Assembly: GCA_963770545.1 (NCBI GenBank)
Contig: CAVYQF010000036.1
Location: forward strand, 38,253-102,252
Origin: an uncultured Actinomycetes bacterium
Lineage (GTDB): Bacteria > Actinomycetota > Actinomycetes > Streptosporangiales > Streptosporangiaceae
Reading direction: 5' to 3'
Length of the DNA: 64,000 bases
The translations under genes and the position numbers were made by a program. Under the pieces are notes generated by a model. It made no database searches, was not told the DNA's origin, and was given only the letters and a program-made list of their open reading frames with translations. Below are positions 6,376-64,000 of the stretch, in pieces; the first letter of the stretch is position 1, and each line of letters starts with the position of its first letter.

Positions 6376-7191
6376 GTGAATAGCGACCTTTCTGGGGACG
6401 TGATGACAGGCGACAGCGACGTGGATCTGGACGGCACCCGGGCCCTGGTCACCGGCGGGACCAGCGGGCTCGGCCTGGCCATGGCCAGCGCGCTGGCCTG
6501 GGCCGGCGCCACAGTCGTGATTACCAGCCGGTCGGCGGAGCGGGCGGCCGCGGCCGCCGCCCGGCTGCCCGGCGCCGTGGGTGTCGCCGCGGACGCCGGT
6601 GACGAGGTGTCGGTCGCCCGGGCGGCCGATCAGGCCTGGTCGTGGCTCGGCGGCCTCGATCTCCTGGTCAATAACGCGGGCCTCGGGATGCGAACGGTCA
6701 ACCCCCGCTTCATGGCCGAGCCCCAGGGATTCTGGGACGTCCCGCCCGCGGGCTTCCGCGCGGTGGTCAACGTGAACCTCACCGGGTACTTCCTGATGGC
6801 CCGGGAGCTCACGCCGCGGATGCTGGAGGCCGGGTCCGGGCGGATCGTCAACATCTCGATGAATCACGCCACGATGAACCGCCGCGGCTTCGTGCCGTAC
6901 GGGCCCTCCCGGGCCGGCGCGGAGGCGCTGTCCCGCATCATGGCGGCCGACCTGGCTGGCACGCCGGTCCGGGTCAACATGCTGCTGCCGGGCGGGGCTA
7001 CCGACACGGGGATGGTGCCCTCCGGGGACCGTCCCGCCGGGCTCACCCTGATCGACCCGGCGGTCATGGGGCCGCCGATCGTCTGGCTGGCCTCGCCGGC
7101 GGCGCGCGACGTGCACGACGAGCTCATCGTCGCCACCGGGTTCGAGGCGTGGCTGGCCGCCCGGAGCCAGGATGTATCCCCTGGACCTTGA
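6376..7191 (+). CDS. SDR-family oxidoreductase
   Basis: 271 aa. TGGTSGLGLA dinucleotide motif and NNAG motif. GTG start 2 nt after the cysE stop. Confidence 0.85.
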   Translation: MNSDLSGDVMTGDSDVDLDGTRALVTGGTSGLGLAMASALAWAGATVVITSRSAERAAAAAARLPGAVGVAADAGDEVSVARAADQAWSWLGGLDLLVNNAGLGMRTVNPRFMAEPQGFWDVPPAGFRAVVNVNLTGYFLMARELTPRMLEAGSGRIVNISMNHATMNRRGFVPYGPSRAGAEALSRIMAADLAGTPVRVNMLLPGGATDTGMVPSGDRPAGLTLIDPAVMGPPIVWLASPAARDVHDELIVATGFEAWLAARSQDVSPGP

Positions 7192-7193
7192 GC

Positions 7194-7236
7194 CGGGACG
7201 CCGGCCTTCCGGGACGCCGGCCTTCCGGGACGCCGG
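7194..7236. repeat. 16-bp tandem repeat x~2.7
   Basis: cgggacgccggccttc repeated. It fills the whole gap between the SDR stop and the LLM ATG. Confidence 0.9.
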
Positions 7237-7986
7237 ATGTACCGGTGGACCTTCGACCACTTCTATCCGATCATGTCCGACTCAACGGGGCCCTGCCTGG
7301 GGGGCTGGGTGACCCTGACCGCACTGGCGCAGGCGACTAGCCGGCTGCGGCTGGGCACGCTGGTCACCGGCATTCACTACCGGCATCCCGCGGTCCTGGC
7401 GAACATGGCCGCCACCCTCGACATCGTGTCTGGCGGCCGCCTGGAGCTGGGCATCGGCGCTGGGTGGAATGAGGAAGAGTCCGGCGCCTACGGTATCGAG
7501 CTGGGCGGCCCGGCTGAGCGCAGCGACCGGTTCGAGGAGGCGTGCGAGGTCATCGTCAGCCTGCTGACGCGGGAGACGACCGATTTCACCGGCCGGTACT
7601 ACCAGCTCGCCGCCGCGCGGTGTGAGCCGAAACCCGTGCAGCAGCCGCACCCGCCGCTGGTCATCGGCGGCAGCGGGGAGCGGCGTACGCTCCGCACCGC
7701 CGCCTGGTTTGCCCAGCACTGGAACTTCGTCGGCGGGGCGCCTGAGGAGTTCGCCCGCAAGCGTGATGTGCTTCATGCCCACTGCCACGACATTGGGCGC
7801 GACCCGGCGGAGATCGTGCTGTCCAGCCATGTCCGGCTCGGCCCTGACGGCGAGATCGGGCCGGCCATCGACACCGTGGGCGCGCTGGGCGCCCTGGGCC
7901 TGGACCTGGCGATCATCATCCTCCCGCCGCCGCACGACCCCGCCGTGCTCGCCCCGCTGGCCGATGCCCTGGCCCCACTCCGCTGA
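7237..7986 (+). CDS. LLM-class (luciferase-like) F420-dependent oxidoreductase, apparently N-terminally truncated
   Basis: 249 aa. Aligns by eye with the second LLM gene (18444..19340) from its residue ~45 onward (W.FDH..P......G...EGWT.L.ALA..T.RLRLG.LVT). It lacks the first beta-alpha unit, and an in-frame TGA at 7189 blocks upstream extension. Confidence 0.65.
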   Translation: MYRWTFDHFYPIMSDSTGPCLGGWVTLTALAQATSRLRLGTLVTGIHYRHPAVLANMAATLDIVSGGRLELGIGAGWNEEESGAYGIELGGPAERSDRFEEACEVIVSLLTRETTDFTGRYYQLAAARCEPKPVQQPHPPLVIGGSGERRTLRTAAWFAQHWNFVGGAPEEFARKRDVLHAHCHDIGRDPAEIVLSSHVRLGPDGEIGPAIDTVGALGALGLDLAIIILPPPHDPAVLAPLADALAPLR

Positions 7987-53187: not shown

Positions 53188-53481
53188 CTACCCGTTCCGT
53201 TCCTGCTCGTCCCGTATTGATTCGGCTGCAGCTTCCGCAAGTGTGCGGTAATCGTCTATGGATATATCCCCGCGATGGTAGGCCGCAGCCACTTCATCGA
53301 AGGATCCTGGGACAAGCGGATCGGGATCGGCCGCAGCGGCCGCTGCTCGCTCGAGGTAGTTCTTTGGCTTGGGTCCGCGAGTTGAGGGCCACGATCTTTC
53401 GCGGAACCGCTGAGCAACTTCGCTTACGCTGATCGAGCCTCGCTTCAAGGCTTCGATCAGTTCAGTCACCTCAGTGCTCAC
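53188..53481 (-). CDS. 97-aa acidic hypothetical protein, last gene of the cassette
   Basis: The GTG start overlaps the zeta-like gene stop (GTGA, 53478-53481). I recognise no family. Lower GC than the surrounding genome. Confidence 0.5.
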   Translation of the reverse strand: MSTEVTELIEALKRGSISVSEVAQRFRERSWPSTRGPKPKNYLERAAAAAADPDPLVPGSFDEVAAAYHRGDISIDDYRTLAEAAAESIRDEQERNG

Positions 53482-54803
53482 AGCCCTTGCTCCTTTTGTT
53501 TACTCAACTCGGCCTCTTCGGCCTTACTTCGATCAACCAGCGTGGCCGAGCAGCCATCCACTGAGTTGTCTTTGATCTCCCAATCATTGACGATTGCTTT
53601 TATGCCTTCAAAAGTCTTCCTATTGCCGCTACCCCATTCTTTATCGGTTTGGTGGAGTATCACTTCGGGCGGGATCAGCCTGCCGCCAAAGCCTTCCCCT
53701 GAAAACCACTTGTCCTGGTCTTCCCAGTATCTTAACTCGGTCCTCCGAAGGCTCGTCTCGATAGGGATTTGAACAAAGAGCGCGTCAACCTTGGTATAGC
53801 CTGCTTCTCTTAAATCCGCGATTCGCTGCTCAGTCTTCGTCTGGTCGGACATTGTTATGTCCCATATCAAATTCTTGCCGTCTGCCTGAGCGCGTATGGC
53901 TAGTTGACGGGCAAGGTACGACGATTCTTCGTGTACGAGCTCTGACGCCTCCATCGGGGACAGTCCCTCCACTTCGGGTATCATCCCATGGCGGGCCATT
54001 TCCTCTTTGAGGCTGTCTGGATTGATTGTTAAGTACTTCGACCTGTCAATCTCCGGGTGGTTTGCCAAGACAGTAGTTTTTCCTGCTCCACTTAGACCGC
54101 CCGCGATTATGGCTTCGTGATCGCAAGGAACATCGGCCGCGCCCGAGTAAATTTCATCCAGAAGCGCTTGATGAAGAACGGTTCGTTCGCTTGACCAGAT
54201 CTCACCCTTGGGATCAATTGTATGCAGTTCGTCAGAGGAGAATCCTTCGTTGTCAGCCTTGTCGAGACGTGCAAAGACGTCGGCGATGTGCTCAGCACGC
54301 TCCTGTTCAGTGTGTGGGCGGACAACCGCAACCGCCTCGTAATCGGGCTTGACGGAATCGTCATGGTGGCTTCCTGGGGCGAGGTCGAGCGCATTCTCGT
54401 TTTGTCCATTAGAGTCCCCATTTAATTTTGGTTCGTCTGTCAAAGCTTGACTTTGCGTCTGGCGCCCTGGGATGTCTAAAGCTGGTTCGGCGTGTTCTTG
54501 GCGGCTTCGGGGTTCGGCGGTCTCGCTGGCTTCGGCCGGGTCGGGTGGCGGGTCGGCTGTGTCGGAGCCTTCGGGGGAGTCGTCGGAGCCTTTGGAGGGG
54601 TAATCGGCGGGTTCGGGGGACTCATTGGCCTGAACGGCGTTGTCTGTTGATTCGGGCTTATCTGTTGCTGGGAGATCCTCCTTCGGCTGGGAGGTCTCGG
54701 GTAGGGGAGGAGTATCTGGTGCGGCGGGCTCGGTCAATCGGGGGGTCTCGGTGGCACGCTCACGGTCGTCGTCTCCACCGTCGGGGAGCATGTCAACGTT
54801 CAT
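53478..54803 (-). CDS. zeta-toxin/PezT-like P-loop kinase domain protein with a ~150-aa acidic low-complexity N-terminus
   Basis: 441 aa. Walker A GGLSGAGKTT at 54072-54101, encoded with A/T-ending codons (GGC GGT CTA AGT GGA GCA GGA AAA ACT ACT). The downstream layout (INPDSLK.., LIWDITMS, VQIP.E.SL.R...R) resembles zeta-family kinases. Confidence 0.7.
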   Translation of the reverse strand: MNVDMLPDGGDDDRERATETPRLTEPAAPDTPPLPETSQPKEDLPATDKPESTDNAVQANESPEPADYPSKGSDDSPEGSDTADPPPDPAEASETAEPRSRQEHAEPALDIPGRQTQSQALTDEPKLNGDSNGQNENALDLAPGSHHDDSVKPDYEAVAVVRPHTEQERAEHIADVFARLDKADNEGFSSDELHTIDPKGEIWSSERTVLHQALLDEIYSGAADVPCDHEAIIAGGLSGAGKTTVLANHPEIDRSKYLTINPDSLKEEMARHGMIPEVEGLSPMEASELVHEESSYLARQLAIRAQADGKNLIWDITMSDQTKTEQRIADLREAGYTKVDALFVQIPIETSLRRTELRYWEDQDKWFSGEGFGGRLIPPEVILHQTDKEWGSGNRKTFEGIKAIVNDWEIKDNSVDGCSATLVDRSKAEEAELSKQKEQGL

Positions 54804-54806
54804 GCC

Positions 54807-57800
54807 TCACCTTCCGACTCCAGAAGCGGTGATGCCCGTGCTGCCCCGCAGATAGTCCAGGGGCCAGCGGCAGTCGTGGAGTTGGGTGAGCGCCTCGGAC
54901 AGGCGCTGCTCCCAGTCCTCGTCCCCAGACTTGGCACCGACGACTGTCTCCACAGTGGCTGGCCGCACGGTCCCGAACGCGATCCGCCGGACATCAGCCG
55001 GATCGCGCTGGTCTGCGTCGTACCAGCGCTGAACCACGCCGATCTGGCTGGCGCAGGTCTCGCCGGAGATGGACCGGCCGGCGCTGGCTTCCCATTCGGC
55101 GGTCTGCGGATGCCGGCCGGATCCCGGGGTCTTCCGGTCCAGGGTTTTCAGGTCATCCAGGATGAGGGCCCACCGAAAAGCGGGGGCCAGCCACTGCGGT
55201 TCGGGAAACTCACACTCCCGTCCGCCGTCCGCGATCCAGCGGCGCAGGGCCGCCGCCACGTGAGACGCCAAGGCGTCCGCGCTGACCCGTGTGGAGAACG
55301 TGCTGGCTCTGGCGGCTACCGCCGCGTCCACGGCATGCGACACGGCGCAGTCCCGGACACGTACGTCGGCGGACAAGGCCGCGACCCGGTGAGCGAGTTC
55401 GCTGCCGGTGACGGGAGTCGGCATGAGCCATCCGGTCAGGTGGGCCAGTACCGCCACCTCGGCCCAGAGGACCAGGCCAGGCTCGGCGATGAGAGTCCGT
55501 TGGGCGGCCCGCATGTCCCGCAGCGTGCAGGGGGTGGCCCGGCAGTCCGGCCCGCAGGTGCCCGACCGCGGCGACACGATGCCGGCCGGGGACGCGGTGA
55601 CCGCCGCGGCGGTGGCTTCCCGGGCGGTACCGTCCGGCATCGCCGCGAGCACGGGGTAGTCCATCCCGTCGCTGAAGACCGCGGCCTGGCCGGGCGGCAG
55701 GGTGACTAGGTACCTGGACTGGGAGTCCGTCATGTTCATGGTCGCCCCGACCATCTCGCGGTCGTCGGCCGCGGGGAGCCGGTGCACGATCTTGACGGCG
55801 GTGTTCTTGACCGCGTCGGGGATGATCTTGGCGGGGATCTGCTCCGCGATGATCAGGCCCTCGCCGTACGCGCGGATCTCGGCGAGTAGGCCGGCGAACA
55901 TTTCCACCGCGTGCGCGGTGGCCCCGGTCCCACTGCGGTGGTCTTCCGGCCGGCGCAGCAGCCGGTGGGCTTCCTCGAACACCGACAGGTGGCGCAACGC
56001 AGGGTTGGTGGCCGCGCCGCTAGCCCGGGCTTGCAGCCGCAGGTGCTCGGTCAGCTGAATCAGCACGGTGCCCATCAGGAACGCCTTGTCCCGGTCGTCA
56101 CCGACGTCCTCGATCTCGAACACGACGTTGCGGGCCATCAGCTTCCCGAAGTCGATCGGGTGACCGCCCTCGAAGAACCGGCCCGTGGTGCCCAGGCGCA
56201 GGCTCGAGACCCGGACCGTGATGAACCCCCGCACGTTGTCGGTGATCTCGCGGCCGTAGCCGATTTCAGACACGATCCGCTCGGCGGCTGCCTGCAGGTC
56301 ACCCAGGGTCGGGTACCGGGGCTGGACGCCCGGCGTAACCGGCTCGCCCAGCGCCAGGTCCCAGCCCGCCTCTTCGTAGACCCGGGTGACCGCGGCGGAC
56401 AGGACCTGCGGGAATGGCTCGTCGGCCGCGAACGAGGCCAGGAACAGCGCCCGGACCAGGTCGGCGTGGGTCTGCAGCGGGAAGCGCCGGCCCGCTGCGT
56501 CGACGGCCGGGGCCAGGGGGTTGATCCCGGCGGCGATCTGGTCCGCTTCACCGGGACGGATGCGCACCACCCCGCGAGCCGTCCCGTTCAGCCGGACGCT
56601 CATCAGCCGGTACTCGGCTTTGGCTGGCTCGACGACCAGCCAGGGCAGGCCGGCTCCAGACGCCCCCTCCAGCAACGCCCGCACGGTCTGCGATTTCCCC
56701 GCTCCCGTCGCGCCGCAGACGAAGACGTGCCGGTTCAGCGAGGCCGTTGGGAGCGACAGGTTCCCGGCCGGTACGCCGTTACGGTCCAGTACCTGGCCCA
56801 GGGGCAGCGGCGCCGCCCGGTTCTCGTCTCTAGGCGGGGGCTCGGGGGTCACGTCGAATTCAGGCCGCAACGCCAGCCGCACGCCGGGGACCTCGACCTC
56901 GGGCACCCGCGCCAACGTGGCCAGCAACAGGGTGCTCGCGTGGAAGGGGAAGGCCGCTGAGGAATCCGTCCGTGACGGAGCAAGGACATCAGGCTGCGTG
57001 CCGAGGAGTTCTGGGAGTGGTTCCGTTAGGGAAATTGAAGGGGTAAGCGCGTACGGAAGGCCGTGCAGGTCCGCGGAAGCGCAGAACAGGCCGGCGACGC
57101 GGGCGGCGGCGGCGGGATCGGGCGCGCCGGCCAGTATGTGCAGCTGCCACAGGCCCGAGGACAGGGCCTGGCGTAATTCGGTGTGGCGTTGTTCGAGGCG
57201 GTGCGCCTGGACCGCCTTTTCCGGGTCGCGCTCGGCCATGGCCGACGCCAGCCGCTGCCTGTCGGCCACCTGGGCGGCGTAGTCTGCGATCTCCGAGCGG
57301 GCGAGGGGGTCGGCGAGGATCAGCCAGCCGAAGGGCCCATCCCAGGCGGCCAGTAGGCACTCCTCCAGCGAAGCGCGATCCAGTTGGAGGTTGGGGCCTT
57401 CCTCGGCCAGGAGGCCGTCGGCGATCCCGCTGATCCGGGTCCAGCAGGGCAGGGCGTTCATCGCGGCGGCCATGCCTCCGGGCGCGATGACCTGGCCTAA
57501 TGCCCCGGCTGGTAAGGCCAGCGAGATTTCGTGGCCTGGGCCGGGCCGTGGGCTGCCGCGGAGGGCTGAGCCGGCCAGCAGGACGTCCACCGGGCCGCCG
57601 GACGCGACGCGGACCCAGCCGATGGCGACGGGGCCCGCATCTGTCTGCCGGCTGATCCCCGCGTGGTAGGCAGAGGCCAGCGCCGCGGCGCGTTGTGGGC
57701 GTCCGGTGTCACGGTCCGCGGGATGGGACGGATCGGCGGCGGCGTCCTGCGGGTGACGGGGGATCCGGGTCACGCGGCACGCGTCGAGGTCAGACAGTCG

Positions 57801-57923
57801 CTGCCACGCCGTTCCCGTCATCGATGTCCCCAGGCTCCGTCGGCTGAGTGCCTTGAACCTCAGGGTAATCAGGCGGTGCACAATTTGTGTGCGGACGTTC
57901 GTGATTCGTAGCATTTCCCTCAC
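54807..57923 (-). CDS. large HerA/FtsK-superfamily (DUF87-like) P-loop ATPase with unassigned N- and C-terminal domains
   Basis: Walker A GATGAGKS at 56691-56714 and Walker-B-like LSVFEEAH at 55965-55988, with IIAEQIP downstream. Start uncertain: GTG 57923, ATG 57914 or ATG 57821. Confidence 0.75.
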   Translation of the reverse strand: MREMLRITNVRTQIVHRLITLRFKALSRRSLGTSMTGTAWQRLSDLDACRVTRIPRHPQDAAADPSHPADRDTGRPQRAAALASAYHAGISRQTDAGPVAIGWVRVASGGPVDVLLAGSALRGSPRPGPGHEISLALPAGALGQVIAPGGMAAAMNALPCWTRISGIADGLLAEEGPNLQLDRASLEECLLAAWDGPFGWLILADPLARSEIADYAAQVADRQRLASAMAERDPEKAVQAHRLEQRHTELRQALSSGLWQLHILAGAPDPAAAARVAGLFCASADLHGLPYALTPSISLTEPLPELLGTQPDVLAPSRTDSSAAFPFHASTLLLATLARVPEVEVPGVRLALRPEFDVTPEPPPRDENRAAPLPLGQVLDRNGVPAGNLSLPTASLNRHVFVCGATGAGKSQTVRALLEGASGAGLPWLVVEPAKAEYRLMSVRLNGTARGVVRIRPGEADQIAAGINPLAPAVDAAGRRFPLQTHADLVRALFLASFAADEPFPQVLSAAVTRVYEEAGWDLALGEPVTPGVQPRYPTLGDLQAAAERIVSEIGYGREITDNVRGFITVRVSSLRLGTTGRFFEGGHPIDFGKLMARNVVFEIEDVGDDRDKAFLMGTVLIQLTEHLRLQARASGAATNPALRHLSVFEEAHRLLRRPEDHRSGTGATAHAVEMFAGLLAEIRAYGEGLIIAEQIPAKIIPDAVKNTAVKIVHRLPAADDREMVGATMNMTDSQSRYLVTLPPGQAAVFSDGMDYPVLAAMPDGTAREATAAAVTASPAGIVSPRSGTCGPDCRATPCTLRDMRAAQRTLIAEPGLVLWAEVAVLAHLTGWLMPTPVTGSELAHRVAALSADVRVRDCAVSHAVDAAVAARASTFSTRVSADALASHVAAALRRWIADGGRECEFPEPQWLAPAFRWALILDDLKTLDRKTPGSGRHPQTAEWEASAGRSISGETCASQIGVVQRWYDADQRDPADVRRIAFGTVRPATVETVVGAKSGDEDWEQRLSEALTQLHDCRWPLDYLRGSTGITASGVGR

Positions 57924-57971
57924 TTGGCGTCGCTGGCTGGGGGGTTGCGGACGGCCGGGAAAGCTCCGGGA

Positions 57972-58295
57972 TTACCCGCGCGGTGACGGGGTGAGCGCCG
58001 CGCGGAGTTCGCTGATGTCTGCGGTGATGACGAGCCAGGGAGTGCCGGTTGTACCGGGCTTGGCGCGGGCGACGTACCGACGGGCGCGACCTGGATAGCA
58101 CTCAATGCCAAGGAAGTGGTCTGGGCATTGCCCGGCGAGGGTGGCTAACTCGCGGTGTGCCCGCTGTTCGGCAAGGAGGACGGCCTGCGGATGCTCTAGG
58201 GCGGCCCTCGTGATTTCGGTGAGGGCTGTTGGTGGAGCGGGTTCCTGCTCCTGGTCGCTGATGGTGCGGGGGGCGGCTGGGTCGTTGCGTGTCAT
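57972..58295 (-). CDS. 107-aa hypothetical protein, first gene of the cassette
   Basis: ATG start and TAA stop, same strand as and ~50-150 nt upstream of the ATPase gene. I recognise no family. Confidence 0.45.
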   Translation of the reverse strand: MTRNDPAAPRTISDQEQEPAPPTALTEITRAALEHPQAVLLAEQRAHRELATLAGQCPDHFLGIECYPGRARRYVARAKPGTTGTPWLVITADISELRAALTPSPRG

Positions 58296-58347
58296 GTCGG
58301 CGTGCTCCGAGTGGCTGGATGGCCGTGATGAGACGCGTATCAGTATA

Positions 58348-58369
58348 GCTCTATAAGAGCTCTATAAGA
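58348..58369. promoter_or_regulatory. AT-rich 11-bp direct repeat x2 containing the 8-bp palindrome AGAGCTCT, in the divergent promoter region
   Basis: agctctataag agctctataag, with AGAGCTCT at 58356-58363. Lies between the 107-aa gene start (58295) and the GntR start (58428). Confidence 0.45.
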
Positions 58370-58427
58370 GCACTACGAAAGCTCTCTGATTGATATACGC
58401 AGGTCAGGGGTAGCTACTGTCACGTGG

Positions 58428-58676
58428 GTGAGCGACATAGCCGCGCCGGGTGGAGGTCAGGAGGAACTCGCCTATGTCCGCGTCGCTAAGGACATCGCGG
58501 CTCGGATTGCCTCAGGAGAACTGGCTTCAGGCACTCGGTTGCGCGCTGAGCGGGACCTGGCTGCTCACTACGGCGTCTCCTACGGGACAGTGCGCCGCGC
58601 CATGAAAGAACTCCGCGACCAGGGTCTGATCGCCACGATCCATGGACGCGGAACCTTCGTGAACAACCCGTCTTAG
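58428..58676 (+). CDS. GntR-type winged-HTH protein without an effector domain
   Basis: 82 aa, GTG start. Y..VA.DIAARI.SGEL..G..L..ERDLA..YGVSYGTVRRAMKELRDQGLI....GRGTFV is a complete GntR wHTH followed directly by a stop. Confidence 0.75.
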   Translation: MSDIAAPGGGQEELAYVRVAKDIAARIASGELASGTRLRAERDLAAHYGVSYGTVRRAMKELRDQGLIATIHGRGTFVNNPS

Positions 58677-58810: not shown

Positions 58811-58986
58811 TCGCGTTACCGTGGTGGATTTGGCCCCGCCCGCGGGGCAAAAGCTACCACGCTAACGCGTCGCTGCGGAGTCCCCGGCGGAGTTCTCCGT
58901 GGGTCAGCGGCGCAGACCCCCCGCCGCGCAGACCCCCCGCGGCGCCGACCCCCCGCGGCGCCGACGGCGCAGACCCCTCAGCGGAG

Positions 58987-60747
58987 TCAGCGGCGCAGAC
59001 CCCCCGCGGAGCCAGCGGCTGAGTCCCCACGAGAGACCCCGGTCCCGTCTATAGCGGAGTCCCCGGCCGGGTAAGCAGCCGAGCCAGCATCCAACCCCGC
59101 CGCAGAGCCCCCGGACCCAGAGCCCCGCAACGGGACCTCGCAGAGGGCGTCCAGGTACGTCTTGGCCCAGTACGCCACGTCATGCTCCAAAACCCTGCGC
59201 CGCATCGACCGCATCCGCCGCCGGGCTTCAGCGGGGGAGACGGTCGCGGCCCGGACGATGGCGTCCTTCAGCCCCTCGATGTCGTGCGGGTTGACGATGA
59301 ACGCGCCGCTCAGCTCGTCCGCCGCGCCGGTGAACTCGCTCAGCACCAGCGCGCCGGTGTCGTCGTAGCGGCAGGCCACGTACTCCTTGGCGACGAGGTT
59401 CATCCCGTCCCGCAGCGGGGTGACCAGCATCACGTCAGCCGCCAGGTACAGCGCGGCCATTTCTTCCCGGGGGTAAGACTGGTGCAGGTAGTTGATGGGG
59501 GCGACGCCTACCTCACCATGCTCCCCATTGATCCGGCCGACCGTGACCTCGACGGCGTCCCGCAGCTGGCGGTACTCCTCCACTCGCTCCCGGCTCGGGC
59601 TGGCCACCTGGACCAGCACCGCACCAGGCGGTCCGAGCCGGCCCTCGTCGAGGATCTCGCCGTAGGCCTTGAGCCGGTGCAGGATGCCCTTGGTGTAGTC
59701 CAGCCGGTCGATGCCCAGCAGCACGATGTCCGGTTTGCCCAGGGCCTCGCGGATCTCCTGGGCCCGGGCTCGCACATCCGGCTCCCGGGCGATCTTCTCG
59801 AATCCGCGCGTGTCGATCGAGATGGGGAACGCCGCGGCGCGGACGTCACGCCCGCTCTGGAAGTGATGCTGCGCCACCCGCTGGCGCCGGATGCTTCGCC
59901 CGGTGGTCTGCGTGGTCGAGTCGTCGAACTCGGCGTCCGGGACCCGGATCAGCGAACCTCGGGTGGCCAGTCCCGCTGCCCGGCGGCAGGCGCGCAAAAA
60001 GTTGGTGGCGTCACTCTGCCGCTGGAATCCCAGCAGGTCCGCGCCGAGCAGCCCACGGACGATCTGCCGCCGCCAGGGCAGCTGGGCGAAGATCTCGTAA
60101 CCGGGGAACGGGATGTGGGTGAAGTGGCCGATGCGGACGTCGGTCCGCAGTTCGCGCACCATCCCGGGCACGAGCTGGAGCTGGTAGTCGTGCACCCATA
60201 CGGTCGCGCCGCGGGCGGCCTGGGCCACGACGACCTCCGCATAGCGCCGGTTCACCCGGACATACGCGTCCCACCACTCACGGTGGAACTCGGGTTGGGC
60301 GATGACGTCGTGATAGAGGGGCCACAGCGTGGCGTTACAGAAGCCTTCGTAATACTCGGCGACCTCTTCTTCCGACAAGCCCACGCTGACCAGGTGCATC
60401 CCGTTGGTGTCGAACGGCTCCGGCGCGTCGCCCGCCGTGCCCGGCCAGCCCACCCAGGCTCCACCGGCGGAACGCATCACCGGTTCGAGCGCGGTCACCA
60501 GGCCACCGGGGCTGGGCCGCCACTCGGTTTCGCCGTCCGGTCCCTCGGTCCGGTCCACCGGCAGTCGGCTGGCCGCAACCACGAAGTTGTACTCGCCGTA
60601 AGCAGCCGTGGTCTCATCCTCCCTGTCGCTGGGCTCATACTGTCCTCGGCCAGGCCGGGGCCGGCCCAGGCGGGCGCTCGTTACCGGCCAGCAGTTCCCC
60701 CGGCTGGCCCCGCGAAACAAGCCTATCCCGTGCGTCAGTTGCGGCAT
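58987..60747 (-). CDS. otsA: alpha,alpha-trehalose-phosphate synthase (UDP-forming) with a repeat-derived C-terminal tail
   Basis: FVVAASRLPVD, GGLVTAL, WVHDYQL, GFFLHIPFP-like HFTHIPFPG, LGIDRLDYTKG, PLRDGMNLVAKEY and LSEFTGAA motifs. Start set at ATG 60747, because the track ORF start overlaps the upstream stop. Confidence 0.85.
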   Translation of the reverse strand: MPQLTHGIGLFRGASRGNCWPVTSARLGRPRPGRGQYEPSDREDETTAAYGEYNFVVAASRLPVDRTEGPDGETEWRPSPGGLVTALEPVMRSAGGAWVGWPGTAGDAPEPFDTNGMHLVSVGLSEEEVAEYYEGFCNATLWPLYHDVIAQPEFHREWWDAYVRVNRRYAEVVVAQAARGATVWVHDYQLQLVPGMVRELRTDVRIGHFTHIPFPGYEIFAQLPWRRQIVRGLLGADLLGFQRQSDATNFLRACRRAAGLATRGSLIRVPDAEFDDSTTQTTGRSIRRQRVAQHHFQSGRDVRAAAFPISIDTRGFEKIAREPDVRARAQEIREALGKPDIVLLGIDRLDYTKGILHRLKAYGEILDEGRLGPPGAVLVQVASPSRERVEEYRQLRDAVEVTVGRINGEHGEVGVAPINYLHQSYPREEMAALYLAADVMLVTPLRDGMNLVAKEYVACRYDDTGALVLSEFTGAADELSGAFIVNPHDIEGLKDAIVRAATVSPAEARRRMRSMRRRVLEHDVAYWAKTYLDALCEVPLRGSGSGGSAAGLDAGSAAYPAGDSAIDGTGVSRGDSAAGSAGGLRR

Positions 60748-60776
60748 TGCTACCGCTGACGGTACTTCTATACCCA

Positions 60777-63700
60777 CTAACGAAGGGCGGGGTCCCTCTC
60801 CCCGAGCGGACCGCCCTGAGCCGCCGCGGGACTGCCGTCCACTCCTGGAGCGGTCCCACTGGTCGGCGGCGGGCCCGCGTGGTTCAAACCCGCGGGGGGC
60901 TGCGGCCCAGTGGGAGTCTCCTGGCCGCTGTTACGGGGCGCCCGGTTCCGGGGCAGGAAGTTGAGCAGCACGGCGAGCAGGATGATGCCGCCGAGCAAGG
61001 CCAGCCCGGCCCACCAGCTGTTGCGCAGCCACGGCAGGACATCGCGCGGGACCCACCCGGCCGTGCTGCTCCCCTTCTTGCCCCACAGTTCGGCGCGCAC
61101 CCAGGGGACGGTGAGCACCCCCACGGCCGCCACCGCGGTGAAGCCGATGAGCGCGCCGAGCAGGCCCCGGTGGATACCCCAGGCCCCGAGGGCGATCAGG
61201 TACAGGCCCACCAGGGCGACGACCGTGCCGGTCAGGCCGATGATCAACGCTCCCTGAGTGGCCATGACGATCCCGACGATGGCAAGTCCCAGGCCGACCA
61301 GCAGGACGTTGCGGCTGCTCCCGCCGACGGCCTTAGTGGCCTGATAACCGGTCCGGGTCACGGCCCGGGCACTGGTCAGGATGGGCCGGATCGATTTCGG
61401 CACTTCCGGGGCAACGGTAAGAGCGGCGGTAGCCACCGCGCCGGCCTTGGTGGCGGTCTCGAGGAAGACCGGGGTGCGCTCTTCCCCGGCCAGGGTCTCC
61501 TCACGCACGGGGCAGGTCGGCAGCAGGGCGGCGAGGTCCTTGGCGCTTCCCGTGTCCTTCACGCCGCGCACGCGGGTGACCCACGGGTCCGGCGACTTGC
61601 CCGTCAACTTGGCCGTGTGCCCGTCATTGGGCGCCATGCACTCCGCAACGGTAGGCAGTTCATTGGCAGCAATGCGCTCCTGCCAGGCCTGGGCCAGGAA
61701 CAAGGCAGAGCTGGGCAGGCTGACCGGAATCGCGGCGTTGGGGTCGCCGAGGAAGTCGAGGTCCTTCTCCAGGCAGTCACCGGGCAGGCCCGCGGGCAGC
61801 CCGAGGGCCTCGCGCAGCACGGTCGCGAAGTTTCTGGCCCGCTCGGCGCGTGGCCAGTCGTAGCGGTTCTCGATCACGGCCAGGATGCGCCGTGGGTCCA
61901 GCAGGATGTGCACCAGCCAGCCGCTGCCGTCCAGGCGTCCCCACATCCAGTCGTAGGCGCGCCAGGAATTCTTGTAGAAGGCGGCGAAGTGGTGCAGTTC
62001 CACCCCGCGCAGCTTGGTTACCCGGTCCTGGTTTGGCGACAGCAGCGTCCGGGTGTTGGCGCTGACCTGAATGAACTCCACCGGCTGGTCGATCACCGGC
62101 TGAGCGGGCTGCAGGGCCCGCTCGGTGACCGTGAGGTTGAGCAGCAGGTCTATCATCGCCGCCGGATCGCTGGCCAACCCCAGGTAATCACGGTAGGTCG
62201 CCAGCCCCTGGGCGGCTTCCCGGCGTGATTTCCGGCCGTCAGCGATGGTCAGAGGGGCGAGGTCGCGGAGCAGATCGATGGCTGCCACCGCGAGTTCCTG
62301 CCAGGCATTGGCGAGCGAGGCCGAGCGGTCAGTCCCGATGAGCAGAACCCGGCGCTTCTGATCAGCCAGCGCCAGGACGAGTGTGGTGAGGCTGGCCGGA
62401 GGCCGGCCTGCCGCCGGTTCCGCGCCCTCACGCACGGTGCGGGCCACGTCCAGGTCATCGTCGTCTCCGGAAGGCAGACCCTCCAGGGCGGCGGTGATGG
62501 CAGCGTGATGGCGGTCGAGCATCTGCCGCTGGCCGGGGTCAGTAGCCCGCTGATAACCCAGCCGGATCAGGTGCTTCAGCGTACCGTGAGCCCCGCGCAC
62601 CGCGGGAAGACCGAAACGGGCCGCCCGGCCGACCGGGTCGGGGGCGAAGTCCTCCCAGGCGGCCGAGGCCGCCCCCTCGTCCCGGAGCATGTCGCCCGGC
62701 GTCTGGTCCTGGTCTGCCACTCCCGCCGCTCCCGTCGGGCCCGGGGCCGGTCCGGCGCCCAGCGCGGCCGGATTCCACCCCGCGCCCAGGATCGTCGTCA
62801 TCGCCGTGGTCAGCCGTTCCTGTTCCGGGGTGGTCGCGGAGAGGCTGGCGGGCAGGAGAGCCGTGTCCCAGCCCTCCGGCAGGCGCTCCAGGGCCGAGAC
62901 CGCGCGCATGACCTCGGCGAGCAGCGGCTGGGCCAGGCCCCGGCCCTGCTGGATCTGGTAGTCAACCAGCAGGGTGGGGGTGACCAGGCGGCCCGGAGAC
63001 AGGCGGGCCCCCATGCCTGCGAGGGCCCGGCGCAGATCGCTCGCGGCGGTGAGCTGGTCATTGTGGTCCCGGATCAGCTGCAGCTCACTGGCGACAGACT
63101 GGCTCAGCTGGGCGTCCAGGTCCATCTTGAGCGCCTGGACCAGGGTCGGCGGTTTCGCCCACTGGTCCGCGGGCGGCGACTGCCCGGCGTTGGCCGTCAC
63201 CCCGCCATCGGGAACCACGAACGCCAGGACCCGGCGGACCTCCCGGGCGGCCCGGCGGCTGAACACGGTGGACAGCAGCGGGGCGATCGGCCGGTTCGCG
63301 AGCAGGCCGCCGTCCGCGACCCAGTGGCTGCGGGTCATGTTGGCAAAACCGGCCATGTCGGGCCGGGGCGGGACACCCTTCACTCCGGTGACCTTCTGGT
63401 GGACCGGGACAAACGAGGGCTCAAACGCCCCCGGGAACGAGGCACTACACCGCGCCGCCAGGGCCAGGGCGTCCAGGGACGACCGGTCCGCAGGATCAGG
63501 CGCGAGATCGTTCTGGTGGAACGTGAAGAGGCCATGGTGGTCCACATCGGGCACCACGGTTCCGTAGTCGTCGGTGAACCGGCTCGTCTCCCCGGACATC
63601 ATCGTCGTGGTGATGAACACGGTGGTGTCGGGCGGAGTGACCGGAGCGAACGGTTCCCCCGTCTTCGGGCGCCCGGCCCAGAATTCCTCGATCCCCTGGG

Positions 63701-64000
63701 CCAGCTGGGTGAACAGCACTTTGTCGCCCTGCATGAGGGACGGGGGGTTGCGTTCCCCGGGATCTCGCAGGAGCAGGTCCATCGAGCCGGTCCTGAGCCA
63801 TAGGTCACGCAGCAGGGCCAGATCGGATCCCGCCGCGCTGGACAGCCCGAGAAGCGCGGCGTTGACCCCGCCGGCGCTGGTCCCCGCGAGCACGTCCACC
63901 GTGACGGTGATGTCGAGGCAGTCCAGGAGTCCCCGGTACAGATTGCGTACCTGCGCGTCCCAGTCCGCTGGAGAGGCTGGTCCGCGTCTGGGACCGGTCC
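60777..64000 (-). CDS. very large patatin-like phospholipase (DUF3376-type) with a C-terminal multi-TM region; 5'-partial
   Basis: The nucleophile elbow AGTSAGG sits right at the track ORF start, and the frame stays open upstream to the window end (..DWDAQVRNLYRGLLDCLDITVTVDVLAGTSAGG). Catalytic-Asp context WVADGGLLANRPI. Four or more TM helices in the last ~200 aa. Confidence 0.8.
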   Translation of the reverse strand, partial: TGPRRGPASPADWDAQVRNLYRGLLDCLDITVTVDVLAGTSAGGVNAALLGLSSAAGSDLALLRDLWLRTGSMDLLLRDPGERNPPSLMQGDKVLFTQLAQGIEEFWAGRPKTGEPFAPVTPPDTTVFITTTMMSGETSRFTDDYGTVVPDVDHHGLFTFHQNDLAPDPADRSSLDALALAARCSASFPGAFEPSFVPVHQKVTGVKGVPPRPDMAGFANMTRSHWVADGGLLANRPIAPLLSTVFSRRAAREVRRVLAFVVPDGGVTANAGQSPPADQWAKPPTLVQALKMDLDAQLSQSVASELQLIRDHNDQLTAASDLRRALAGMGARLSPGRLVTPTLLVDYQIQQGRGLAQPLLAEVMRAVSALERLPEGWDTALLPASLSATTPEQERLTTAMTTILGAGWNPAALGAGPAPGPTGAAGVADQDQTPGDMLRDEGAASAAWEDFAPDPVGRAARFGLPAVRGAHGTLKHLIRLGYQRATDPGQRQMLDRHHAAITAALEGLPSGDDDDLDVARTVREGAEPAAGRPPASLTTLVLALADQKRRVLLIGTDRSASLANAWQELAVAAIDLLRDLAPLTIADGRKSRREAAQGLATYRDYLGLASDPAAMIDLLLNLTVTERALQPAQPVIDQPVEFIQVSANTRTLLSPNQDRVTKLRGVELHHFAAFYKNSWRAYDWMWGRLDGSGWLVHILLDPRRILAVIENRYDWPRAERARNFATVLREALGLPAGLPGDCLEKDLDFLGDPNAAIPVSLPSSALFLAQAWQERIAANELPTVAECMAPNDGHTAKLTGKSPDPWVTRVRGVKDTGSAKDLAALLPTCPVREETLAGEERTPVFLETATKAGAVATAALTVAPEVPKSIRPILTSARAVTRTGYQATKAVGGSSRNVLLVGLGLAIVGIVMATQGALIIGLTGTVVALVGLYLIALGAWGIHRGLLGALIGFTAVAAVGVLTVPWVRAELWGKKGSSTAGWVPRDVLPWLRNSWWAGLALLGGIILLAVLLNFLPRNRAPRNSGQETPTGPQPPAGLNHAGPPPTSGTAPGVDGSPAAAQGGPLGERDPALR

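Follow-up and report, generated by a model that had tools for sequence, protein, structure and literature searches.

In a 64,000-nt stretch of DNA from an uncultured bacterium of the Streptosporangiaceae (contig CAVYQF010000036.1; hereafter the window), a gene for a large ATPase (positions 54807-57821) is followed by a gene for a kinase with a long acidic leader and by a gene for a protein of 97 amino acids (aa). Our preferred reading, held at a little less than even confidence, is that these three genes are one module of a modular conflict system that serves toxin delivery. A resident ATPase coupled to swappable cassettes of leader-toxin and immunity protein is a widespread arrangement in actinobacteria and apparently an undescribed one. 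A first reading of the locus, made from its letters only (the sequence-only reading), had proposed an undescribed system of four open reading frames (ORFs) on the minus strand, and the coordinates of all four were reproduced. The claim of novelty was largely right, but the system is modular with interchangeable cassettes, and neither the first of the four ORFs, encoding 107 aa, nor a divergent GntR gene is part of it. The module has the following features.

54807-57821, minus strand: DUF8350-family ATPase of the FtsK/HerA/VirB4 superfamily, 1004 aa from ATG 57821 (precomputed Pfam assignment PF27615, DUF8350)
54807-57923, minus strand: the same ATPase ORF at its full open frame from GTG 57923, 1038 aa
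56691-56714, minus strand: Walker A of the ATPase, GATGAGKS, aa 404-411, invariant in 58 homologues
55965-55988, minus strand: Walker B region of the ATPase, LSVFEEAH, aa 646-653, with E650, E651, A652 and H653 nearly invariant
55527-55556, minus strand: Cys cluster C790-x3-C794-x4-C799 (TCGPDCRATPC) where the C-terminal helical domain of the ATPase begins, in invariant columns
53478-54803, minus strand: toxin-candidate kinase, 441 aa, composed of a leader and a zeta/AvrRxo1-like kinase domain (Pfam PF06414)
54354-54803, minus strand: acidic leader of the kinase, aa 1-150, rich in P, D, E and S, beginning MNVDMLPDGGDD (family pattern M-x-[VIT]-D-[RKM])
54489-54518, minus strand: leader motif AEPRSRQEHA, aa 96-105 (family consensus [AE][EP]R[ST]RxE[HY]A)
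54072-54101, minus strand: Walker A of the kinase, GGLSGAGKTT, aa 235-244, invariant in 16 family members
54015-54023, minus strand: NPD of the kinase, aa 261-263, invariant in 16 family members
53188-53481, minus strand: gene of the 97-aa protein, a predicted five-helix product, cognate partner of the kinase and candidate immunity protein or antitoxin

In the window's ATPase clade, the ATPase, kinase and 97-aa genes form a conserved and tightly spaced unit, in agreement with the gene neighborhood that the sequence-only reading had supposed. Using tblastn, co-oriented kinase and 97-aa sequences were detected downstream of the ATPase in all of the approximately 26 loci of this clade (~26/~26). 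Kinase and 97-aa gene are decayed remnants in several of these loci, the three nearest relatives of the window included, while the ATPase is intact. In the window, the ATPase stop codon TGA is followed by GGC and then by the ATG of the kinase, which is the 3-nt gap reported before, and GGAAGG precedes it. Kinase stop (TGA) and 97-aa start (GTG) overlap as GTGA, with AAGGAG upstream. Relatives are spaced just as tightly: a 4-nt overlap occurs in locus L004 (L numbers are our locus handles), in Streptomyces clavuligerus plasmid pSCL4 and in Nocardia and S. antimycoticus plasmids, while L041 and L069 have gaps that measure about 2-6 nt.

Two forms of the kinase differ in this linkage. Type I kinases, which carry the long acidic leader with the [AE][EP]R[ST]RxE[HY]A motif, have the ATPase immediately upstream in 23/23 loci with upstream DNA, whereas type II kinases, with a short N-terminus and the sequence 'GHPS[SA]', have it in none of about 45 loci (0/~45; flanking DNA of up to 5.7 kb). 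Phylogenetically, the type I kinases form a single clade inside type II. The cassette type tracks the ATPase clades, as in co-diversification. A context of conjugation or of a type IV secretion system (T4SS) had been named as speaking against a functional pairing, and so had ATPase homologues without a zeta partner. The homologues do not lie in such a context, and where the zeta partner is missing another leader-toxin often follows instead. We had also considered the kinase-97 pair as a mere insertion, based on two close loci without a called kinase; the tblastn remnants and the leader analysis overturned this view.

Other toxins take the place of the kinase in other ATPase clades. An alarmone synthetase with an SaEAS-like C-terminal domain (profile against Protein Data Bank (PDB) entry 8VX3, 1.5e-34) and an 84-aa protein are encoded directly upstream of the ATPase in 13 loci; the N-terminus of the synthetase starts with MA[TI]DR and carries PEExR[ST]RxELY. 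At 5-6 loci, the gene that begins a few nt past the ATPase stop encodes a leader and a hydrophobic C-terminal tail. One or two copies of a gene for a ~146-aa protein come next, tandem copies being frequent, and neither the tail proteins nor this partner have a Pfam match. The ATPase of pSCL4 is followed by an ADP-ribosyltransferase (MSTDRE..., Pfam 2e-24) and a 134-aa protein. On the Nocardia plasmid the corresponding protein has 725 aa, including an acidic leader of 430 aa and a lipase-like end (GHSLG), and is accompanied by an ankyrin partner; the S. antimycoticus plasmid encodes a RelA_SpoT-like protein, a 94-aa protein and an HD_4 hydrolase. Toxins of other clades have a similar M-x-x-D-R start and acidic leader. 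The leader motif is present in all ATPase-linked leader-type kinases, SaEAS-like toxins and hydrophobic-tail proteins, and an Actinoallomurus leader variant, 'PSRA[ED]SRAGAAAANE', is common to a kinase and a synthetase that both adjoin the ATPase.

Polymorphic toxin systems are defined by a leader, a variable toxin and a downstream immunity gene (Zhang et al., 2012, PMC3482391). At the ATPase loci, at least six toxin types stand behind similar leaders, thus a constant N-terminus with varied toxin domains, and the downstream partners are the 97-aa, 84-aa, ~146-aa and 134-aa proteins, the ankyrin protein, and the 94-aa protein with the HD hydrolase. These partners presumably confer immunity. The small partners are mutually unrelated (hhalign probability 3.7%), so the partner goes with the toxin and not with the ATPase, as is expected of toxin-specific immunity proteins.

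The 97-aa protein is a strict companion of the kinase. The kinase profile retrieved 80 metagenomic loci, and in each one whose contig extends far enough the kinase is directly followed by a 97-aa homologue. The family comprises 157 clusters with 19 invariant columns, and the AlphaFold2 (AF2) model shows five helices (predicted local distance difference test score, pLDDT, 78). The protein had been described as acidic, which holds mildly (18 D+E vs 13 K+R). Neither its profile against the PDB nor its AF2 model searched with Foldseek revealed a sequence or fold relative, and a weak Pfam match to VbhA (0.0055) was below the cut-off, so this identity was rejected. We regard the protein as a candidate for the immunity protein or antitoxin of the kinase. 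About 45 loci carry the pair without any ATPase; it is an autonomous module too. Several contigs harbor multiple tandem or inverted copies of the leaderless pair (L156 3298-8310, L152 4403-7120, L166 790-3270), an amplification typical of toxin-immunity loci. Leaderless 'GHPSS' pairs are also found directly 3' of genes resembling pntA/pntB for NAD(P) transhydrogenase (labeled by eye, without a hidden Markov model (HMM)) in L095, L133, L136, L138, L148, L152 and L160, which is curious because AvrRxo1-type kinases phosphorylate NAD.

The zeta/PezT-like kinase that had been proposed for the C-terminal half of the 441-aa protein was borne out by Pfam, where Zeta_toxin (PF06414) matches aa 231-385 well above its curated cut-off (68.5 bits vs 22.3, E = 7e-19); the AAA_33 kinase model matches as well (6e-11). 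Both marks of the zeta family, Walker A and a conserved Asp, are present. The Asp of NPD aligns with NPD of AvrRxo1 and with IDGD of PezT; in AvrRxo1 it is the catalytic D193, and it has the corresponding role in zeta and PezT. The family and AvrRxo1 have the motifs W..ERR.LH, NPD and VHxESSxLA in common, and the kinase sequence itself matches PezT weakly in the PDB (0.25). The acidic, low-complexity N-terminus noted before is evident from the first 150 residues (23 P, 21 D, 16 E, 13 S, 15 hydrophobic), a composition from which the leader is predicted to be disordered. A phmmer search of the whole library with the leader alone (aa 1-130) returned just 7 close relatives; with so little complexity, the leader is not a suitable query for discovering toxin types that are new.

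The ATPase most likely starts at ATG 57821 (MTGTAWQRL), as its homologues have 1004-1016 aa and a conserved 'GTAWQxL' start in common. Its AF2 model (pLDDT 72) predicts three domains, in the numbering of the 1038-aa frame: an N-terminal alpha/beta domain (~40-370), the P-loop core (~373-760) and a C-terminal domain that is all-alpha and rich in Cys and His (~775-1025). Hydropathy analysis did not reveal a transmembrane (TM) segment (maximum KD19 1.59). The positions given earlier for Walker A and Walker B of the ATPase and for the P-loop of the kinase were reproduced from the translations. In addition to the Cys cluster, which is a candidate metal-binding site, C859, H863, C904 and C1018 are invariant. 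Pfam recovered DUF87/HerA_C barely over the cut-off, and the sequence had weak matches only in the PDB (HerA cores, 1e-4). Foldseek with the AF2 model aligned the core only, with VirB4 4ag6 as best match (3e-10), then HerA 4d2i, TrwK, DndH-C and TrwB, and Sir2-HerA too; the Foldseek probability was 1.00 for VirB4, HerA, TrwK, TrwB and DndH-C. The Walker A and B motifs and the core fold thus are those of the FtsK/HerA/VirB4 superfamily. The earlier description as HerA-like holds at this level, but VirB4 is the better fold match, and membership in the defense-type HerA clade did not stand, with curated HerA_antiphage models scoring 31.9 bits vs a cut-off of 800 and 19.9 vs 850. Fold matches confined to the core, these low scores and the lack of a TM segment mark the protein as a superfamily member that belongs to no specific known clade.

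The ATPase is a resident, vertically inherited gene with host composition. GC content is 0.714 for the ATPase (GC at third codon positions, GC3, 0.86), vs 0.56-0.59 for the cassette and 0.708 for the whole window. The family exceeds 1785 clusters at E <= 0.001, and the best 120 listed have about 58-94% identity over roughly their full length. One genome per species was scanned, yielding 80 ATPase loci from metagenome-assembled genomes (MAGs) of Streptosporangiaceae and from Actinomadura, Spirillospora, Actinoallomurus, Amycolatopsis and Microlunatus. Chromosomal positions are conserved and core-like, beside otsA or near crgA/pknAB, and the ATPase is often kept where the cassette is absent or decayed. 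Several paralogous ATPase loci with different effectors can occur in one genome (L029/L059/L069; L051/L053). No full-length homologue was found in phages, which we regard as neutral evidence.

A possible membrane partner is found at other ATPase loci. The family termed c6 comprises conserved proteins of ~600-790 aa with two N-terminal TM helices, which adjoin the ATPase in 25 basal loci and are encoded upstream of it and co-directionally on all three plasmids. c6 is missing from the window and the window's ATPase clade. It is encoded in genomes with a window-type locus, beside their paralogous ATPases (L051 and L053 are from one MAG). It has no Pfam match and no sequence match in the PDB.

Further partners were observed at individual loci. 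In L046 (7146-8000, Actinoallomurus) a gene for a PHP-domain phosphoesterase ends 3 nt before the ATPase start (HMM-confirmed for L046 only), and by clustering the same ORF family (cluster N7) lies upstream of the ATPase in about 17 Actinomadura/Spirillospora-type loci, where it would be a constant enzymatic partner replacing the leader-toxin. A 'zeta toxin family protein' on a plasmid of Streptomyces sp. NBC_00708 (L170 4518-6059) is a chimera of a classical zeta toxin domain (Pfam 1e-30) and the C-terminal half of the DUF8350 ATPase (54% identity to window aa 653-820), which may have arisen as a Rosetta-stone fusion or be left over from a rearrangement. NUDIX ORFs preceded by the EPRTRxEHA leader motif lie a few kb 3' of the kinase-97 pair in L017 (13859-14680), L018 (15650-16516) and L105 (8891-9667; NUDIX Pfam 2e-14); they could be a cassette, displaced or alternative, or else encode a detoxifying enzyme. 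The SaEAS-like gene upstream of the ATPase is frameshifted or truncated in L044, L050, L052 and L062 (about 6700-7450), so toxins decay in the synthetase cassette type too; the 84-aa partner is full length in L044 and L062 and was not recovered in L050 and L052. In the synthetase-bearing clade, a divergent gene for a WhiB-like small Cys protein lies 3' of the ATPase (L035, L044, L052, L062, L067, L075, L077, L081), and the same eight loci have a DNA methyltransferase-like gene past the ATPase (labeled by eye, without HMM check). Together with the Cys cluster of the ATPase, these neighbors may point to redox or DNA-related regulation.

For the preferred reading we envisage the following mechanism. 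The ATPase, presumably as a hexamer, would engage the disordered acidic leader of the toxin and spend ATP to part the toxin from its immunity protein and hand it on. The toxin would most likely leave the producing cell by a polymorphic-toxin delivery route, and export would work with the two-TM c6-family protein, which is encoded at basal and paralogous ATPase loci and not in the window. In a more far-reaching form, which we consider rather unlikely, the DUF8350 ATPase and c6 would be the core of an unrecognized actinobacterial protein-delivery pathway that exports a polymorphic toxin arsenal via acidic leaders. Among the exported proteins would be zeta/AvrRxo1-like kinases, (p)ppApp/(p)ppGpp synthetases, ADP-ribosyltransferases, lipases and membrane-active proteins. 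A dedicated immunity protein would keep each toxin in check until its removal by the ATPase. We lean toward delivery because of the polymorphic-toxin layout, the VirB4-like core and the membrane partner of the basal loci, and because SaEAS- and AvrRxo1-type toxins are known as exported effectors and a lipase-like toxin is paired with an ankyrin protein. SaEAS-type enzymes are documented exported toxins (PMC12691689), and signal-peptide-less versions in Streptomyces adjoin genes annotated as 'TrwB/TrwK/TrwI' (Ahmad et al., 2025, PMC12691689). AvrRxo1 has a disordered N-terminal secretion signal and a downstream 98-aa chaperone/antitoxin (PMC4938570).

Several results weigh against toxin delivery by this module. 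In several relatives the kinase gene and the 97-aa gene have both decayed and immunity is not retained, which fits an intracellular toxin-antitoxin pair better than an exported toxin. Neither in the window nor in its clade does the ATPase have a linked membrane or channel gene, and the leader did not match known secretion signals. About 40% of the ATPase loci have no adjacent cassette, and the monophyly of type I kinases implies essentially one capture event for the kinase, hence few independent events. The PHP partner of the ATPase in the Actinomadura/Spirillospora clade hints at a nucleic-acid function. The best PDB match of the kinase-family profile is AvrRxo1-ORF1 (4z8q) at a borderline E = 0.029, no Arc1 chain was among the 97-aa profile matches (E up to 10) or the 50 Foldseek PDB matches listed, and neither the 97-aa profile nor its AF2 model matched epsilon or PezA.

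The rival closest to the sequence-only reading is an intracellular toxin-antitoxin or abortive-infection module gated by the ATPase. Here the ATPase would sense an invader, free the kinase from its 97-aa antitoxin and shut down the infected cell; foreign DNA ends, for example, could be what is sensed, and the acidic leader could serve as a pseudo-substrate of the DNA pore. This idea is still live, now as one of two live mechanisms, and we regard it as a real possibility, if a doubtful one. A soluble ATPase without secretion genes close by is consistent with it, as is a core like that of HerA in Sir2-HerA and DUF4297-HerA, which the PADLOC HerA and mad8 models match. A constant NTPase with variable effectors (nucleotide-modifying, lipase-like, membrane-tail, PHP) is typical of defense, paralogous ATPase loci with different effectors share one genome, and the leaderless kinase-97 pairs stand alone. 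Three more observations favor this rival: the window's clade has no channel gene, toxin and partner decay jointly, and in the Actinomadura clade the ATPase is partnered with a PHP phosphoesterase. On the other hand, known HerA-effector defense systems have no separate immunity protein, and the NCBIfam antiphage-HerA models are far below their cut-off (31.9 bits vs 800). The ATPase resides at conserved core-like sites and not in patchy islands, it is kept after cassette loss, and the conserved two-TM partner of the basal loci would be left unexplained.

Chance adjacency is, in our view, improbable. It would mean that an autonomous AvrRxo1:Arc1-like toxin-antitoxin pair lodged behind an unrelated housekeeping ATPase, with incidental co-transcription. 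The roughly 45 kinase-97 loci without ATPase, the foreign composition of the cassette and the region between ATPase and TetR/2-Hacid_dh that varies among relatives agree with this, and one ancestral insertion kept by synteny could explain the clade-wide association. However, it is hard to reconcile with the leader correlation and with repeated cassette replacement: the leader is confined to the ATPase-linked form (23/23 vs 0/~45), at least five unrelated toxin-partner pairs with like leaders occupy this slot, with stop-start codon overlaps, in different clades, genera and replicons, a lineage-specific leader variant spans toxin types, and a chimera of zeta toxin and ATPase C-terminus exists. 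Least probable, and very unlikely, is a metabolic or regulatory nucleotide kinase, acting for instance on NAD, with the 97-aa protein as its regulator. The AAA_33 match (6e-11) and the leaderless members directly after pntA/pntB-like genes in several contigs (a label taken from the sequences, without HMM) would fit such an enzyme. Zeta_toxin is the best family match, however, and above its cut-off, and among solved structures the closest relatives are two toxins, AvrRxo1 and PezT. A strict small downstream partner, low GC, frequent pseudogenization and tandem duplication (L152, L156) are traits of toxin cassettes, and the same slot is occupied elsewhere by bona fide toxin domains (ADP-ribosyltransferase, alarmone synthetase).

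Toxin delivery, as we prefer to read the module, also has to be placed among known systems. AvrRxo1:Arc1 of Xanthomonas, Acidovorax and Burkholderia is similar in having a zeta-fold kinase of ~420-440 aa with a disordered N-terminal region, the toxin gene first and a ~98-aa partner directly 3' (here 97 aa with a GTGA overlap). Lower GC than the genome and frequent inactivation of the toxin are further likenesses (PMC4938570). On the contrary, the 97-aa protein has no sequence or fold similarity to Arc1, the kinase link is borderline, the leader motifs are different, a VirB4/HerA-type ATPase precedes the window kinase and is translationally coupled to it, and the host, an actinomycete, has no type III secretion system. 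Epsilon/zeta and PezAT likewise have the Zeta_toxin domain, Walker A, conserved Asp and a small proteinaceous partner, but in the window the partner is downstream instead of upstream and unrelated to epsilon or PezA, and the toxin has a 150-aa leader and an ATPase link. Kinases of the zeta/PezT type phosphorylate UDP-GlcNAc, as AvrRxo1 does NAD, and arrest growth. Mycobacterium zeta-like pairs (MHSD3; Rv0366c/0367c) were set aside, as short toxins with an upstream ribbon-helix-helix antitoxin represent a different layout.

Sir2-HerA, DUF4297-HerA and HerA-NurA resemble the locus in their soluble FtsK/HerA-superfamily ATPase beside an effector and in a similar core structure. The DUF8350 ATPase differs by its large unique N- and C-terminal domains and its fold is nearer to VirB4, while its linked effectors are swappable, with a disordered leader and their own immunity proteins. 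Pfam analysis of the neighbors of the window ATPase revealed no Sir2 or DUF4297 effector. In PADLOC, the generic HerA (partial) and mad8 (4e-14) models match the ATPase core, and the other three proteins have no model match; the ATPase core alone matches mad8, while a MADS system would include other mad genes. Toxins of type VII secretion systems (T7SS; LXG/WXG, EssC/EccC) and T4SS (VirB4/VirD4) share a constant N-terminal part, a variable C-terminal toxin, a downstream immunity gene, an FtsK/HerA-type ATPase alongside and an overlapping repertoire of alarmone synthetases, ADP-ribosyltransferases and lipases. Unlike these, the present system lacks the WXG/LXG helical domain and EccB/C/D/E, VirB6/8/10 and relaxase genes, and its leader is acidic and disordered, in place of a trafficking domain with a fold. 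Type VII secretion is marked by a multi-domain membrane EccC/EssC and WXG100/LXG substrates; here the ATPase contains one P-loop domain and lacks TM segments, and the leader has no WXG/LXG Pfam match. The Pfam scan, which covered ORFs between ~36.5 kb and the end of the window, detected no VirB6/8/10, VirD4 or relaxase genes, and the called genes of six related loci include none. The synthetases adjacent to the clade-B ATPase are clear homologues of the SaEAS family (1.5e-34), but the DUF8350 ATPase, the common acidic leader and the toxin exchange are not described in the SaEAS paper (Ahmad et al., 2025, PMC12691689), and the window has a kinase and not a synthetase. No matching system was found in the openly searchable (non-subscription) literature or among the PADLOC models; the nearest published hint is the location of signal-peptide-less Streptomyces SaEAS homologues beside 'TrwB/TrwK/TrwI' genes (PMC12691689).

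Two neighboring genes had been noted together with the module.

57972-58295, minus strand: ORF of 107 aa, not a component of the module
58428-58676, divergent to the cassette: GntR winged helix-turn-helix (wHTH) gene, 82 aa (Pfam GntR 1.8e-17)

The 107-aa ORF had been considered translationally coupled to the ATPase. This does not hold, because the probable ATPase start at ATG 57821 leaves ~150 nt after its stop. Nor is the ORF a conserved component, as it is present in the nearest relatives only (L007, L008, L120). The GntR gene was rightly described as divergent and consisting of a wHTH only, and it is restricted to the closest relatives like the 107-aa ORF, hence no component either. Both form their own small unit (57972-58676), inserted between otsA and the ATPase in closest relatives only. 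The AT-rich spacer between them (58296-58427) contains an operator-like direct or palindromic repeat, gctcttatagagctcttatagagcta. Glyoxalase, OtsA and GntR are the Pfam-identified neighbors of the cassette, and the Pfam scan of ORFs from ~36.5 kb up to the last position of the window revealed no gene for an integrase, relaxase or secretion protein, in agreement with the earlier account. In the window's ATPase clade the syntenic order is OtsA - ATPase - ... - TetR - 2-Hacid_dh - DUF427, and the stretch between ATPase and TetR/2-Hacid_dh differs among relatives. Upstream of the module (58987-63899), a GT20 trehalose-6-phosphate synthase OtsA (4e-143) and a patatin/DUF3376 protein are encoded, the stop of the latter overlapping the otsA start (60777). 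Just 3' of the otsA stop, positions 58895-58990 harbor 4-5 copies of G-rich direct repeats, ggggggtctgcgcc and variants. treXYZ-like amylase genes lie close to a more distant ATPase homologue (L003); the proximity of the ATPase to trehalose genes is probably mere synteny.

If the coupling between ATPase and cassette is functional, it would define a new and broad conflict system in Streptosporangiales, Streptomyces and Nocardia, on chromosomes as well as megaplasmids, and many interchangeable toxins would share one conserved ATPase. Such a system would assign a function to DUF8350 and to several small hypothetical protein families, and account for how signal-peptide-less SaEAS-type synthetases and AvrRxo1-like kinases are handled in actinomycetes. 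It would also provide a handle for the discovery of toxin and immunity genes, namely a gene that starts at the ATPase stop codon and encodes M-x-x-D-R and an acidic leader. The complete four-gene locus exists in cultured strains, such as S. clavuligerus with pSCL4 (BB341_RS29380-29395). Whether the ATPase belongs to an export route or to an ATPase-gated suicide module, either would matter for interbacterial competition, phage defense and Streptomyces biology.

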